From IMG/VR virus record IMGVR_UViG_2778261031_000007, positions 1 to 34,551 of that record: 34,551 nt of DNA. One strand, given 5' to 3'. Below are positions 4,085-27,066 of this stretch, in pieces. The notes below the pieces were generated by a model. It had not been told where the DNA came from, searched no databases, and worked only from the letters and a program-made list of their open reading frames with translations. The stretch's first letter is position 1; every line of letters starts with the position of its first letter. Made by a program: the position numbers and the translations under genes. This DNA is from a virus (Duplodnaviria > Heunggongvirae > Uroviricota > Caudoviricetes).

Positions 4085-4206
4085 GAAACCAGAACATGCA
4101 CACACAAAAAAACCGCTTGCCATGCCGCAATCGGTCAGGTTACATTTCCGCTGCACCTCATAAAACGGGTGCCGGGATTCTCAACCCGATACAGAGCAAA
4201 GCGCAT

Positions 4207-4227
4207 AACCGCGCCAGCGGTTTTTTT
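4207..4227 (+). terminator. Intrinsic terminator (AACCGC-GCCA-GCGGTT then T7)
   Basis: Perfect 6-bp GC-rich stem, 4-nt loop, run of 7 T. Confidence 0.5.
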
Positions 4228-4239
4228 GTGCGTACTGTA

Positions 4240-4268
4240 TTGCCACGTCTTTTTCGCGTCAGAATTAT
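4240..4268 (+). promoter_or_regulatory. Candidate sigma70 promoter for the replication module (TTGCCA-N17-AATTAT)
   Basis: -35/-10-like hexamers with 17-bp spacing, followed by a structured leader with a UUCG-loop hairpin (4285-4298) and an 8-bp inverted repeat GTTGAGAA/TTCTCAAC (4321-4361). Confidence 0.3.
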
Positions 4269-4406
4269 GGCGGGGCGTACGGGGCCGACTTCGGTCGGGC
4301 CGGATTCTTTGCTCTCCGGTGTTGAGAACCCTGTACGTCTCGCCACCCCGAGATTCTCAACTCTGGATGGTGAGCTATTTCTATCACCGAGCAAAGAGGC
4401 CACACC

Positions 4407-22556: not shown

Positions 22557-24575
22557 ATGAGTACCACAACACGAAAATTTAAAACCGTTATCACCGATAC
22601 GGGTGCAAAAAAATTAGCGCAGGCAGCCGCGCCAGATGGTAAGCCTGTCCGCCTGACTCATATGGCCGTGGGCGACGGTGGCGGTACATTGCCCACACCT
22701 GACAGTAAGCAGACCCGTCTGGTGCATGAGGTGTGGCGACATACTGTTAATCGCGTCATCCTGGACGCAACACATCAGAACCGCATTATTGCAGAGCTGG
22801 TTATTCCTCCTGAAACGGGCGGATTCTGGATCCGGGAAATTGGTGTATTTGATGAGCACGGCGATTTAATCGCGGTGGGCAATACTGCCGAAAGTTACAA
22901 GCCAGCCGTTGCCGAAGGGTCCGGTCGTGCACAAACATTTCGCACCATTCTGACCGTATCCAGCACAGCCACCGTGGCGCTTACCGTGGATAACACCATG
23001 GTGATGGCCACAGTGGATTACGTGGATGACAAACTGAAAGAGCATGAACAGTCACGACGTCACCCGGACGCCTCGCTGACCGCAAAAGGCTTTGTTCAAC
23101 TCAGTAGCGCCACCAACAGCACGTCTGAAACGCAGGCTGCAACGCCGAAAGCAGTAAAGGCCGCGTATGACCTTGCTAACGCAAAATATACCGCTCAGGA
23201 CGCCACGACGGCACAAAAAGGGATAGTCCAGCTCAGTAGTGCCACCAACAGCACGTCTGAAACACTGGCCGCGACATCGAAAGCGGTTAAGGCGGTAATG
23301 GATGAAACGAACAAGAAAGCGCCCTTAAACAGTCCTGCGCTGACCGGAACGCCAACAACGCCAACTGCGCGACAGGGAACGAATAATACCCAAATCGCAA
23401 GCACGGCTTTCGTTATGGCTGCGATTGCCGCCCTTGTAGATTCGTCACCTGACGCACTGAATACGCTGAACGAGTTAGCGGCGGCGCTGGGAAACGACCC
23501 GAATTTTGCGACCACCATGACTAACGCGCTTGCGGGTAAGCAACCGAAAGATGCCACCCTGACGGCGCTGGCCGGGCTTGCTACTGCGGCAGACAGGTTT
23601 CCGTATTTTACGGGGAATGATGTCGCCAGCCTGGCAACCCTGACAAAAGTCGGGCGGGATATTCTTGCGAAATCGACCGTTGCTGCCGTTATCGAATACC
23701 TCGGTTTACAGGAAACGGTAAACAGGGCTGGTAACGCCGTGCAAAAAAATGGCGATACCTTGTCCGGTGGGCTTACTTTTGAAAATGACTCAATCCTTGC
23801 CTGGATTCGAAATACTGACTGGGCGAAGATTGGATTTAAAAATGATGCTGATGGTGACACTGATTCATACATGTGGTTTGAAACAGGCGACAACGGCAAT
23901 GAATATTTCAAATGGAGAAGCCGCCAGAGCACCACAACAAAAGACCTGATGACGCTGAAATGGGATGCACTAAATATTCTGGTAAATGCCGTCATTAATG
24001 GCAGTCTTGGAGTTGGTACGACGAATGCGTTAGGTGGTAGCTCTATTGTTCTTGGTGATAATGACACCGGATTCAAACAGAATGGTGATGGTATTCTGGA
24101 TGTTTACGCTAATAGTCAGCGAGTATTCCGCTTTCAGAATGGAGTTGCTATTGCTTTTAAAAACATTCAGGCAGGTGATAGTAAAAAGTTCTCGTTATCC
24201 AGCTCCAACACCTCCACAAAGAATGCAACGTTTAATTTATGGGGTGTTTCAACCCGTCCAGTAGTTGCAGAGTTAGGCGATGAGGCAGGATGGCATTTCT
24301 ATAGCCAGCGAAATACAGATAACTCGGTAATATTTTCTGTTAACGGTCAGATACAGCCCAGCAACTGGGGGAATTTTGATTCACGCTATGTAAAAGATGT
24401 TCGCCTGGGTACGCGTGTTGTTCAATTGATGGCGCGTGGTGGTCGTTATGAAAAAGCCGGACACGCAATTACCGGATTAAGAATCATTGGTGAAGTAGAT
24501 GGCGATGATGAAGCCATCTTCAGACCAATACAAAAATACATCAATGGCACATGGTATAACGTCGCACAGGTGTAA
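22557..24575 (+). CDS. H: Tail fibre protein H (constant N-terminus, invertible C-terminal domain, current orientation)
   Basis: 672 aa; SSATNSTSET..A-T-(P/S)KAVKA fibre repeats; crossover site at 23689-23714 lies in frame inside the gene. Confidence 0.9.
   Translation: MSTTTRKFKTVITDTGAKKLAQAAAPDGKPVRLTHMAVGDGGGTLPTPDSKQTRLVHEVWRHTVNRVILDATHQNRIIAELVIPPETGGFWIREIGVFDEHGDLIAVGNTAESYKPAVAEGSGRAQTFRTILTVSSTATVALTVDNTMVMATVDYVDDKLKEHEQSRRHPDASLTAKGFVQLSSATNSTSETQAATPKAVKAAYDLANAKYTAQDATTAQKGIVQLSSATNSTSETLAATSKAVKAVMDETNKKAPLNSPALTGTPTTPTARQGTNNTQIASTAFVMAAIAALVDSSPDALNTLNELAAALGNDPNFATTMTNALAGKQPKDATLTALAGLATAADRFPYFTGNDVASLATLTKVGRDILAKSTVAAVIEYLGLQETVNRAGNAVQKNGDTLSGGLTFENDSILAWIRNTDWAKIGFKNDADGDTDSYMWFETGDNGNEYFKWRSRQSTTTKDLMTLKWDALNILVNAVINGSLGVGTTNALGGSSIVLGDNDTGFKQNGDGILDVYANSQRVFRFQNGVAIAFKNIQAGDSKKFSLSSSNTSTKNATFNLWGVSTRPVVAELGDEAGWHFYSQRNTDNSVIFSVNGQIQPSNWGNFDSRYVKDVRLGTRVVQLMARGGRYEKAGHAITGLRIIGEVDGDDEAIFRPIQKYINGTWYNVAQV
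23689..23714. repeat. gix/hix-like 26-bp invertase crossover site (left)
   Basis: TTATCGAATACCTCGGTTTACAGGAA; imperfect dyad; inverted copy at 26367-26392. Confidence 0.8.
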
Positions 24576-24578
24576 ATT

Positions 24579-25106
24579 ATGCAGCATTTAAAAAATATTA
24601 AGTCCGGAAATCCAAAAACAAAAGAACAATATCAGCTAACAAAGAATTTTGATGTTATCTGGTTATGGTCCGAAGACGGTAAAAACTGGTATGAGGAAGT
24701 AAATAACTTTCAGGACGACACCATAAAGATTGTATACGACGAAAATAATATTATTGTTGCCATAACCAAAGATGCCTCAACGCTTAATCCCGAAGGCTTT
24801 AGTGTCGTTGAGATTCCAGATATAACAGCCAATCGTCGTGCCGATGATTCAGGGAAGTGGATGTTTAAGGACGGAACTGTGGTTAAGCGGATTTATACAG
24901 CAGACGAACAGCAACAACAGGCCGAATCACAAAAGGTCGCGTTGCTTTCTGAAGCTGAAAGCGTTATTCAGCCACTGGAACGCGCTGTCAGGCTGAATAT
25001 GGCGACGGATGAGGAACGCACACGACTGGAGTCATGGGAACGCTACAGCGTTCTGGTCAGCCGTGTGGATACAGCAAATCCCGAATGGCCACAAAAGCCT
25101 GAGTAA
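24579..25106 (+). CDS. G: Tail fibre assembly chaperone G
   Basis: 175 aa, immediately after H. Confidence 0.85.
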
Positions 25107-25111
25107 AAATT

Positions 25112-25131
25112 AAGGCCCAATATCGGGCCTT
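25112..25131. terminator. Hairpin between convergent G and G' (AGGCCC-AATATC-GGGCCT)
   Basis: 6-bp GC stem between the two stop codons. Confidence 0.45.
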
Positions 25132-25134
25132 CTC

Positions 25135-25668
25135 TCATTCTGGTTGTTCGGGAAACGTTACTGGCAGGCTGGAGGTGTCTGTAGATTCGACTTTCTGCGC
25201 ATAGAGCATCCACTCGGTTAATTTTTGTTTATTCTCGTCGGAAATGATGCCCAGCCGTAGCTGTGAGTCCCATAGCTGGGTTTTATCCCTGACAAGTTGC
25301 AACAGGCTTTGCTTTTCATTTTCCGCTTGTTGCCTCTGCTCTTCCTCGGTATAAGTTCGCTTTATCACTACGCCATCTTTGAACAACCATTTCCCCGAAA
25401 TATCAGCCCGGCGATTTGCTGTAATATCAGGTAATTCAACGACGCTTGCGCCTTCCGGATTAATTGCTGAAACATCCTTTTCAATACAAATAATAACGCC
25501 GTTATGGTCATAGACCATTTTCAAAGTGTCTGGCTGGAAATTCTTTTGTTCCTCATACCAGTTTTTTCCATCATCTGAATAAAGCCATTTGATGTTAAAT
25601 TGCTTTGTTAGCTGGTATTGCTCTTTTGTTTTAGGGTTGCCAGCAGTAATGTTTTTTAAGTGCATCAT
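25135..25668 (-). CDS. Alternative tail fibre assembly chaperone G'
   Basis: 177 aa, paralogous to G ([22 protein letters not shown] versus [22 protein letters not shown]), inverted. Confidence 0.85.
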   Translation of the reverse strand: MMHLKNITAGNPKTKEQYQLTKQFNIKWLYSDDGKNWYEEQKNFQPDTLKMVYDHNGVIICIEKDVSAINPEGASVVELPDITANRRADISGKWLFKDGVVIKRTYTEEEQRQQAENEKQSLLQLVRDKTQLWDSQLRLGIISDENKQKLTEWMLYAQKVESTDTSSLPVTFPEQPE

Positions 25669-25670
25669 CG

Positions 25671-26381
25671 TTAAATACTCCCCGCGTTATACCACGTCCC
25701 ATTAATGCAATACTGAATTGGCCTTGCCTGTGTTGTATCAATTAATTCATCACGGTTTCCGTTAACTGAACCCGTAACGACATAACCTGACCTGTCAGAC
25801 CAGCCGGGACCATTCCATGTCTGAACAGATGACAGACCGCCAAGGCGAATACCTGTAATAAACCTTGAGTTACATTCTGCCCGCGTATATGCACCAACAT
25901 CTCCCGCTGAAGGTTTTCGTGTCGTGGTATAGAAATCTGACCAACCTAATTCAAACCCATAACCATCACGAGCCGACCTGTAGGAAATGCCACCATTTTT
26001 ATAATTCACACGGAATTGTACGGCAGGACAGCTACCAGCATTTATATTAAAGTGAAGAATTAATGCAGATGCACCACCAATCAGGGCGTTATATGCACCA
26101 CTATCCCAATTCCATCCAACGGATGTATCACCATTAACAGTATTACCTGTTTGTCGGAGTGCAAATGCATTGACATTTTTGGCACTAATTGAAATATCGC
26201 TAGAACCATCAAAACCAACTCCAGCAATTTTTCGTGCTGTTTTCAGCTTTGTTGCAGTAGCGGCATTGCCGGACAGTTCCCCAGAAAGGCCACCGCTGAA
26301 TGTTTGTCGATTGGTCCAGGTATTCGCTGTACTGAGTAACGGTATTTTCTCCCCGCTTGTGCCGAGTTCTCGTAAACCGAG
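25671..26381 (-). CDS. Silent alternative tail-fibre C-terminal cassette H'v (no own start; in frame with the crossover site)
   Basis: Hand translation from the crossover codon at 26381 is open for 236 codons to stop at 25671-25673; the track shows only the internal GTG-initiated part 25671-26009. Confidence 0.75.
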   Translation of the reverse strand, partial: LGLRELGTSGEKIPLLSTANTWTNRQTFSGGLSGELSGNAATATKLKTARKIAGVGFDGSSDISISAKNVNAFALRQTGNTVNGDTSVGWNWDSGAYNALIGGASALILHFNINAGSCPAVQFRVNYKNGGISYRSARDGYGFELGWSDFYTTTRKPSAGDVGAYTRAECNSRFITGIRLGGLSSVQTWNGPGWSDRSGYVVTGSVNGNRDELIDTTQARPIQYCINGTWYNAGSI

Positions 26382-26392
26382 GTTTTAAATAA
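26367..26392. repeat. gix/hix-like 26-bp invertase crossover site (right, inverted)
   Basis: TTCTCGTAAACCGAGGTTTTAAATAA; reverse complement matches the left site at 21 of 26 positions including the core ACCTCGGTTTAC. Confidence 0.8.
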
Positions 26393-26446
26393 TGGCCGTT
26401 TCTGGCCTGCATGGCATGATTTGCGCTTTTGGACGGGAGATTCAGT

Positions 26447-27046
26447 GTGCTGATTGGCTATGTAAGGGTATCAACAAATGACCAGAATACAGACCTGCAA
26501 CGAAACGCTCTTGTTTGTGCAGGATGTGAACAAATATTTGAAGATAAATTAAGCGGGACAAAGACAGACCGACCGGGATTAAAACGCGCTTTAAAGCGCC
26601 TTCAAAAAGGTGACACGCTGGTTGTCTGGAAACTGGATCGCCTCGGGCGAAGCATGAAACATCTGATTTCTCTCGTCGGGGAACTACGGGAGCGAGGGAT
26701 TAATTTTCGCAGTCTGACCGACAGCATAGACACATCTTCTCCAATGGGGCGTTTTTTCTTCCACGTGATGGGTGCCCTGGCTGAAATGGAACGTGAATTA
26801 ATTGTTGAACGTACACTGGCCGGGCTGGCGGCAGCGCGCGCAAGGGGGCGCACAGGCGGACGTCGACCGAAGCTGACAAAAGAACAGCATGAGCAAATAG
26901 CAAGGCTAATCAAAAACGGGCACGACAGAAAACAACTGGCAATAATTTACGGCATTGGCACATCGACGATTTATCGTTATCACCCTGTAGGCGATATACA
27001 GACTGAAGAAACAACCGGGCAGACTCAGGAAAATGAAAACCGCTAA
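26447..27046 (+). CDS. Serine DNA invertase (Gin/Pin/Cin/Hin family)
   Basis: From GTG 26447 (GGGAGA RBS): LIGYVRVSTNDQNTDLQRNAL N-terminus and GRSMKHLISLVGELRERGINFRSLTDSIDTSSPMGRFFFHVMGALAEMEREL core near-identical to recalled Gin/Pin. Confidence 0.9.
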   Translation: MLIGYVRVSTNDQNTDLQRNALVCAGCEQIFEDKLSGTKTDRPGLKRALKRLQKGDTLVVWKLDRLGRSMKHLISLVGELRERGINFRSLTDSIDTSSPMGRFFFHVMGALAEMERELIVERTLAGLAAARARGRTGGRRPKLTKEQHEQIARLIKNGHDRKQLAIIYGIGTSTIYRYHPVGDIQTEETTGQTQENENR

Positions 27047-27066
27047 TCTGACCATTAGCGGTTTTT
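27036..27066. terminator. Bidirectional terminator shared by invertase and the U-T operon
   Basis: AAAACCGCTAAT-CTGACC-ATTAGCGGTTTT, 12-bp stem flanked by A and T runs. Confidence 0.65.

Follow-up and report, generated by a model that had tools for sequence, protein, structure and literature searches.

A probable Mu G-segment-type inversion switch at the tail-fibre locus of a P88-type prophage of Escherichia coli

Relation to known tail-fibre switches

The closest described system is the G segment of phage Mu, with its invertase Gin, its gixL and gixR sites, its S-U and S'-U' genes, its sis enhancer and Fis. The same class of Fis-dependent serine-invertase tail-fibre switches includes the C segment of P1 and P7 (Cin), the P segment of e14 (Pin) and P2-like prophage loci of EPEC E2348/69. 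Hin of Salmonella, with its hix sites, belongs to the same recombinase subclass and also uses 26-bp sites, but it flips a promoter and not coding cassettes. Experiments have shown that both orientations of the EPEC loci coexist in clonal cultures (PMC4272514).

The window, i.e. the whole stretch of 34,551 nucleotides that we analysed (IMG/VR record IMGVR_UViG_2778261031_000007), was assigned by sequence comparison to a P88-type (P2-like, Xuanwuvirus) E. coli prophage. We consider, with a probability of about 0.93, that this prophage carries a site-specific inversion switch of the Mu G-segment type. Its parts correspond by homology to P2 H/G, Mu S'/U' and Gin, and in essence the locus is a Mu G segment joined to an H gene of P2 type. 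The switch is real, and for this reason already known: it is a textbook system and has been annotated in near-identical phage genomes. The records of P88_4B11, of the Citrobacter phage phiSM and of P88 (Xuanwuvirus, Peduoviridae), whose whole loci are 98.6%, 98.1% and 94% identical to this one, all list a DNA invertase together with a pair of tail-fibre genes and a pair of assembly genes. P88 differs in the variable parts of H (55% identity) and H' (longer), and P88_4B11 by one further 132-nt fibre repeat. The paper on P88 nowhere mentions inversion or an invertase (PMC5285337), the one on phiSM mentions only 'a predicted DNA invertase' and does not discuss inversion (PMC6456863), and our literature search found no paper tying strains NU14 and UTI89, which are compared below, to inversion.

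Architecture and gene order are those of Mu, and the likeness extends to the invertase (85% identical), the homologues of U and U' (97%) and the S' tip (88%, as also for the Sv' tip of P1 and P7). Yet the phage is P2-like, and the constant part and expressed tip of its fibre are of P2-H type, not of Mu type. Its segment is the shorter one (2,680 bp; that of Mu measures about 3.06 kb), and, unlike the two sites of Mu, which are identical, its left and right sites disagree at 5 of 26 positions. The proximal part of H' is 83 aa shorter than in Mu, and the invertase has a DNA-binding domain only about 59% identical to that of Gin and an extra 18-aa C-terminal tail. P2 itself keeps the 26-mer of H at the same codon with one mismatch, but this is the only gix-like 26-mer in its H-G region, where a terminator and fun(Z) come after G and no second cassette, second site or invertase adjoins it. 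From its sequence, P2 H-G behaves as a fixed (+) orientation. The EPEC and e14 systems differ by pix-type repeats (AAACCTTGGTTTGGGAGAA), segments of 1.8-2.0 kb and other cassettes; these repeats and segment lengths exclude identity of our locus with the flipping EPEC loci.

Sites, cassettes and invertase

The earlier note on this DNA described two 26-bp sites in inverted orientation around a segment of 2.7 kb, and our analysis confirmed their coordinates to the base:

23689-23714, + strand: left crossover site (gixL-like), TTATCGAATACCTCGGTTTACAGGAA, in frame inside H, central TC at 23701-23702
26367-26392, - strand: right crossover site (gixR-like), reverse complement TTATTTAAAACCTCGGTTTACGAGAA, central GA at 26379-26380
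23701-26380: invertible segment between the crossover points, 2,680 bp; flipping the homologous segment turns the NU14 locus into the UTI89 locus

The two sites match at 21 of 26 positions, for which the chance expectation is 0.00026 per window, and the next-best match on the - strand reaches 18/26. Both are imperfect dyads, as had been claimed, with 14 (left) and 16 (right) of 26 positions self-complementary, and their central dinucleotides, TC and GA, are complementary. Alignment with Mu gix gave two mismatches for the left site and three for the right one, at the positions of gixL and gixR, and the left site coincides with the annotated boundary of the Mu G segment. It lies in frame within H (22557-24575, 672 aa), while the right site stops 54 nt short of the GTG at 26447, in agreement with the proposed placement 55 nt upstream of the invertase start. 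No third crossover site was found in the window at up to 7 mismatches, and a shufflon reading was rejected on this ground.

The segment contains the C-terminal part of H and the gene G on the + strand, and G' and a startless H' C-terminal part on the - strand, the contents that the earlier note had listed:

22557-23700, + strand: constant N-terminal part of H, 381 codons to the crossover codon, expressed in both orientations
23700-24575, + strand: variable C-terminal part of H, expressed, 291 aa, receptor-binding end of P2-H type
24579-25106, + strand: G, tail-fibre assembly chaperone for the expressed tip, Pfam Caudo_TAP, 97% identical to Mu U
25135-25668, - strand: G', silent alternative tail-fibre assembly chaperone, Pfam Caudo_TAP, 97% identical to Mu U'
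25671-26381, - strand: H', silent startless alternative C-terminal cassette, 236 codons and a stop

Each alternative C-terminal part is thus followed by its own Caudo_TAP chaperone, the two cassettes are convergent, and the N-terminal part stands outside the segment. G and G' are 56% identical, and the only PDB match of G' is the Mu U chain of 5YVQ. H has the Pfam domains Phage_tail_fib and Phage_fiber_2 and is 89% identical to P2 gpH over its full length, with a nearly identical C-terminal half; its variable part is also 47% identical to that of Mu S and matches the Mu S chain of the same PDB entry. H' is open from the crossover codon for 236 codons, as had been noted, and inversion in silico produces a fusion of 617 aa. 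In the present orientation a TAA at 26387-26385 closes its frame; this codon lies beyond the crossover, within the outer half of the right site. The only start-type codon of H' is a GTG at 26009, so that its description as silent and startless holds. The last 165 aa of H' are 88-89% identical to the S' proteins of Mu, D108, P1 and P7 and to PDB 8JU3, whereas its first 71 aa are unlike Mu S'.

One claim did not survive. The C-terminal parts of H and H' had been called unrelated in sequence, but over their last ~110 aa the two can be aligned with 32% identity (E 1e-9). They share the end motif RPIQ..INGTWYN, and their ends were also detected as an inverted repeat (I1). Inversion exchanges tip and chaperone, replacing a P2-H-type tip and G by a Mu-S'-type tip and G', which by analogy to Mu and P1 would change the host range. 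phiSM, whose locus is in the same orientation as ours, needs the waaR-dependent glucose of the LPS outer core (PMC6456863).

The invertase and the candidate regulatory elements of the region are:

26447-27046, + strand: serine DNA invertase, 199 aa, GTG start, GGGAG ribosome-binding site upstream
26480-26542: candidate Fis-dependent recombinational enhancer, two Fis-like 15-mers in the 5' part of the invertase gene
25112-25131: palindromic GC-rich hairpin between the convergent G and G', likely terminator from a consensus scan
27036-27065: hairpin with T-runs on both sides, 3' of the invertase stop and facing a convergent tail gene, likely bidirectional terminator

ORF calling extends the invertase frame to a TTG at 26429, but we took the GTG at 26447 as its start because the alignment with Gin fixes it. 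The protein has the Pfam domains Resolvase (PF00239, E 1e-50) and HTH_7 (PF02796, E 4e-13), matches the Gin entries 4M6F and 3UJ3 of the PDB at E 1e-100, and is matched by the DNA-binding domain of Hin at E 5e-12. Its ORF is intact, and Ser9, His106 and Met114 are all present. In Gin, S9 is the catalytic serine, H106 and M114 are positions whose mutation gives Fis independence, and M114V is one such mutation (PMC3575834). The motif Q-x-x-R-L, which in helix 1 of the Hin DNA-binding domain (Q151, R154, L155) contacts Fis (PMC3798978), is kept, with QIARL here aligned to QAGRL in Gin.

A scan of the 5' region of the invertase gene with the Fis consensus gave ten weak matches and three pairs at 47-49 bp, and does not discriminate alone. 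We have therefore relied on near-identity to Mu gin, from which the first 250 positions of the gene differ at only 3 bases, in the place where gin has its Fis enhancer. The candidate 15-mers, found with a degenerate motif, are spaced by 48 bp from centre to centre, and the pair lies ~107 bp from the right crossover. Such spacing and distance fit the Hin enhancer, which lies about 100 bp from one site (PMC3798978). In the Gin/Cin/Pin/Hin class generally, the enhancer has two Fis sites some 47-48 bp apart, in cis and close to one crossover site, and inversion depends on host Fis and on negative supercoiling. The analogy to Mu and Hin suggests that the switch depends on Fis and that its enhancer is placed here. 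In a scan for sigma-70 promoters the region had fewer sites than shuffled sequences, and so we make no claim on promoters. The earlier reading of a Gin/Pin-type switch is supported: sites, Ser9 invertase and gin-like DNA at the place of the enhancer are each homologous to the Mu paradigm.

Inversion in natural genomes

Among complete E. coli genomes with at least 80% coverage of the junction query, 321 have the orientation of the window and 104 the inverted one. The inverted right-junction query (1,820 bp) is covered at 100% in complete genomes, with up to 99.7% identity. The earlier note had named a single orientation and a dead invertase as observations that would speak against a switch; both orientations are common and the catalytic serine is in place. 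The clearest case is that of UTI89 and NU14, which are near-clonal and have the prophage at the same chromosomal place. Their loci differ solely by the flip of the 2,680-bp segment: once it is reversed, 10,820 bp align without a mismatch. The half-sites have changed places just as predicted, so that the crossover must lie within the central 11 bp of the site. Two phage records (503458 and 520873) were also deposited in the inverted orientation, with H' 100% identical. Inversion at this locus thus occurs in nature, with crossover at the centre of the site, and the switch is intact and evidently active.

The switch might flip and yet have a dead, or OFF, state in the H' orientation, if the fusion of H and H' failed to assemble into a working fibre. 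This might be thought to follow from the first 71 aa of H', which have no counterpart in Mu S' or in the H' of P88, both of which are 83 aa longer there. However, the H' frame is intact over all its codons, an identical H' is retained in several phage records, the fusion is annotated as a full-length tail fibre in UTI89, and 104 genomes have the H' orientation. The receptor-binding part of H' (165 aa) shares 88% identity with Mu S', whose structure has been solved, and G' shares 97% with U'. We regard an OFF state as very unlikely.

We give still less credit to the idea of a frozen locus, in which the orientations found in databases would reflect old events that were inherited vertically or moved by phage recombination. 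Relic sites do exist, since P2 keeps its gix-like 26-mer without an invertase. Yet the intact invertase ORF here has all its key residues, and only a very recent event can explain why UTI89 and NU14, over 10.8 kb in one and the same chromosomal position, show no difference but the flip. Finally, that orientations differ through RecA-dependent recombination at the inverted repeats or through assembly errors is hardly credible, because, although any inverted repeat can in principle recombine and nothing more specific favours this origin, the shared sequence (26 bp at 21/26) falls well short of what RecA recombines efficiently and would not be long enough to mislead assemblers. In addition, the exchange lies in the 11 bp at the centre of the site, and this flip turns up repeatedly, in about one in four of 425 genomes.

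Proposed mechanism and relevance

Our preferred reading remains an active Mu-type switch, whose steps can be proposed from the sequence, from natural variants and from the better studied invertases. By homology and natural variants, the Gin-like serine invertase acts on the two gix-like 26-bp sites, and crossover takes place in their central 11 bp, which include the TC/GA dinucleotide. As described for Gin and Hin, two bound dimers would synapse on a Fis-bound enhancer in the 5' end of the invertase gene, the central TC/GA would be cut on all four strands through phosphoserine links to Ser9, and rotation of one dimer by 180 degrees followed by religation would leave the 2,680-bp segment flipped. 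Transcription of H comes from outside the segment, and no more of the gene than its first 381 codons is constant. In the present orientation H ends in the P2-H-type tip, and the chaperone G follows; in the other one, the same N-terminus is fused in frame to a Mu-S'-type tip of 236 codons, with the chaperone G' behind it. The cassette that lies on the non-transcribed strand is silent for lack of a start codon. Since orientation would select tip and chaperone, a population of lysogens may release two types of virions with different LPS-receptor specificities, as inferred from Mu and P1.

The locus illustrates cleanly, and in nature, how unrelated phages exchange modules, here the fibre shaft and tip of P2, the alternative tip and chaperones of Mu/P1, and a Gin-type invertase. 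It places an active switch in clinically important lineages of E. coli, including ST95 (UTI89/NU14), ST131 and O145. It is relevant for annotation, as many annotations call the silent cassette 'hypothetical' or 'incomplete', for the comparison of genomes, where a flip may be misread as a structural difference among strains, and for predictions of the host range of P88-like temperate phages. It opens no new biological question.

Some departure from the behaviour of Mu is conceivable. The divergence of the DNA-binding domain and the four non-identical half-sites mean that rates and bias may differ from those of Mu; together with the 18-aa tail, they might also indicate an invertase with shifted site preference or a built-in orientation bias. 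Separately, the shortened H' might recognise a receptor unlike that of Mu G(-). We think it unlikely that one or the other holds, and each would amount to no more than a modest variation on a known system. As a side observation, the split of orientations among genomes is ~3:1, a ratio that would fit an orientation bias.

Architecture of the invertible locus

The tail-fibre gene H and its chaperone gene G converge on a silent alternative cassette, H' and G', encoded on the opposite strand. A serine-recombinase gene follows, and two inverted 26-bp sites bracket a 2,680-bp segment.

Features of the tail-fibre locus (evidence in brackets)
22557-24575, plus strand: H, tail fibre, 672 aa (ORF and Pfam)
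24579-25106, plus strand: G, Caudo_TAP chaperone, 175 aa (ORF and Pfam)
25135-25668, minus strand: G', second chaperone gene (ORF and Pfam)
25671-26381, minus strand: H', startless open frame (ORF)
start GTG 26447, plus strand: serine-recombinase gene, next after the H' region (ORF and Pfam)
23689-23714, plus strand: left site, TTATCGAATACCTCGGTTTACAGGAA (base-level reading)
26367-26392, minus strand: right site, TTATTTAAAACCTCGGTTTACGAGAA, given on the other strand (base-level reading)

A repeat finder placed the inverted repeat at 23685-23714 / 26367-26396, and reading at base level bore out the imperfect sites described in the earlier note, whose numbers were all correct. The sites have 21 of 26 bases in common, with complementary central dinucleotides (TC and GA). 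The chance expectation for a pair of such quality is 0.00026 per window; the runner-up on the minus strand in a window scan matched at 18/26, and the window holds no third crossover site at up to 7 mismatches. The left site is in frame within H (...AVIEYLGLQE...), and the invertase start lies 55 nt beyond the right one, as claimed: GTG 26447 is preceded by GGGAG and matches Met1 of Gin in alignment. As the window stands, a TAA within the right site's outer half closes off the H' frame, whose sole start-type codon comes 124 codons in. In-silico inversion of 23701-26380 joins codon 381 of H to the 236 further codons previously counted, giving a 617-aa protein. A palindromic hairpin (25112-25131) between the convergent G and G', and a second, T-run-flanked hairpin 3' of the invertase (27036-27065), are likely bidirectional terminators.

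Inversion in sequenced genomes

We searched 5,426 complete E. coli genomes with a 1,820-bp query representing the right junction in both configurations (made up of 600 bp of the segment plus the site, the gene for the invertase and the P88-specific tail gene next to it), counting genomes at 80% query coverage or more. The junction was found as in the window in 321 genomes and inverted in 104, the best matches running unbroken over 100% of the query with 99.5-99.9% identity. Two phage records (503458 and 520873) were also deposited in the inverted state. Genomes and phage records thus hold both orientations, not the single orientation with a dead invertase that the earlier note had named as grounds against a switch. 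In the near-clonal E. coli strains UTI89 and NU14 the prophage occupies the same chromosomal location and encodes identical proteins, but its two chaperone genes have changed places. When 2,680 bp of the NU14 locus are flipped at the central dinucleotides, the result matches that of UTI89 across 10,820 bp with 0 mismatches. Half-sites are exchanged between the strains as predicted, and the crossover is therefore confined to the central 11 bp.

The H' orientation might be an OFF state rather than an alternative host range. The shortening of H' leaves this idea a small residual probability, but the H' frame is intact, conserved and part of an expressed fibre in 104 genomes. A fossil switch is contradicted by the exact flip between UTI89 and NU14, as are RecA recombination and assembly artefacts by a repeat of only 26 bp and a crossover that maps to the site centre.

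Annotation of the silent cassette, RefSeq included, is inconsistent: UTI89 has it as a "hypothetical protein", whereas NU14 lists a pseudogene, "phage tail protein, incomplete, missing N-terminus". Inconsistency of this kind is an artefact that arises systematically when invertible cassettes are annotated.

Origins of the cassettes and the invertase

H as expressed here shares 89% identity with P2 gpH, and the C-terminal halves of the two are nearly identical. Over its final 165 aa, H' shows 88-89% identity to the S' proteins of Mu, D108, P1 and P7, and also to the solved Mu S' structure (8JU3); G and G' are each 97% identical to their Mu counterparts, U and U'. The proximal 71 aa of H' (26170-26381, minus strand) bear no relation to Mu S' or P88 H', both 83 aa longer there; phages 503458 and 520873 have this short form at 100% identity. 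The two tips, previously considered unrelated, are in fact 32% identical over their last ~110 aa (E 1e-9) and end in a common motif, RPIQ..INGTWYN. A 132-nt (44-aa) Phage_fiber_2 repeat occurs twice in the constant part of H (23066-23161 and 23198-23293). The H genes of phage P88_4B11, NU14 and UTI89 have one extra copy (716 aa vs 672 aa), and the number of fibre-shaft repeats is therefore variable.

Overall, the invertase shares 85% identity with Mu Gin, but it is mosaic, with 98% identity at residues 1-120 and ~59% in the HTH domain (121-181). It ends in an 18-aa polar tail, VGDIQTEETTGQTQENENR, that Gin lacks; domain and tail together take up window positions 26807-27046. Ser9, His106 and Met114 are all kept, as is the Q-x-x-R-L helix through which Hin contacts Fis. 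Over its first ~250 bp the gene differs from gin by three bases, and Kahmann et al. in 1985 reportedly located the gin enhancer in this same 5' stretch. A candidate enhancer is placed there on the strength of this near-identity. Two Fis-like motifs spaced 48 bp apart also sit there, 107 bp from the crossover, but so degenerate a motif proves nothing by itself. In Hin systems too, the Fis-dependent enhancer occupies the 5' part of the gene at a distance of ~100 bp from one recombination site, and its two Fis sites are separated by 47-48 bp (PMC3798978). Together, the homologies to P2 H, Mu/P1 S'/U' and Gin show a composite element, in which a P2 H/G unit is combined with a Mu/P1 S'/U' cassette and a Gin-type invertase.

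Known relatives, mechanism and host range

Against gix, the left site has 2 mismatches and the right site 3, and both fall at annotated G-segment boundaries in Mu. The observation is confirmed and its interpretation as a Gin-type switch supported; as a tail-fibre inversion system it falls into the textbook class of Mu, P1 and e14. Experiments have demonstrated tail-fibre inversions in P2-like E. coli prophages with different, pix-type cassettes (PMC4272514), and a systematic survey of inversions (PMC9881135) recognises tail-fibre genes beside homologues of P2 gene I as an enriched class. P2 itself keeps a gix-like 26-mer in gene H, with one mismatch, at the homologous codon (record positions 2405-2430). 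This looks like a relic or latent crossover site, because no invertase or second cassette adjoins H-G in the fetched P2 region.

What the sequences show is the anatomy of the switch, its homologies and its products in nature. By analogy with Gin/Hin biochemistry (PMC3575834, PMC3798978), invertase dimers bound at the two sites would synapse on the Fis-bound enhancer, Ser9 would cut at the central TC/GA, and one dimer would turn 180 degrees before strand religation. As in Mu and P1, the two orientations may then yield virions differing in LPS specificity. Phage phiSM, which carries this locus in the orientation seen here, requires waaR-dependent outer-core glucose (PMC6456863), which fits a P2/Mu G(+)-like receptor.

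The window as a whole is a P2-like prophage of the P88 type (genus Xuanwuvirus, Peduoviridae). Its locus is 98.6% identical to that of P88_4B11, 98.1% to that of Citrobacter phage phiSM and 94% to that of P88, and the rest of the window is collinear with all three. The records of these phages already annotate a DNA invertase along with two tail-fibre genes and two assembly genes. Our literature search found no paper dissecting the P88-type switch specifically, a descriptive gap rather than a knowledge gap. The early region of the window carries, in tandem on the plus strand, Rfam matches to isrK (4153-4227, 62.8 bits) and C4 antisense RNA (4263-4350, 78.5 bits); the pair (4153-4350) is a P1/P7-type c4 immunity RNA module within a P2-like prophage.
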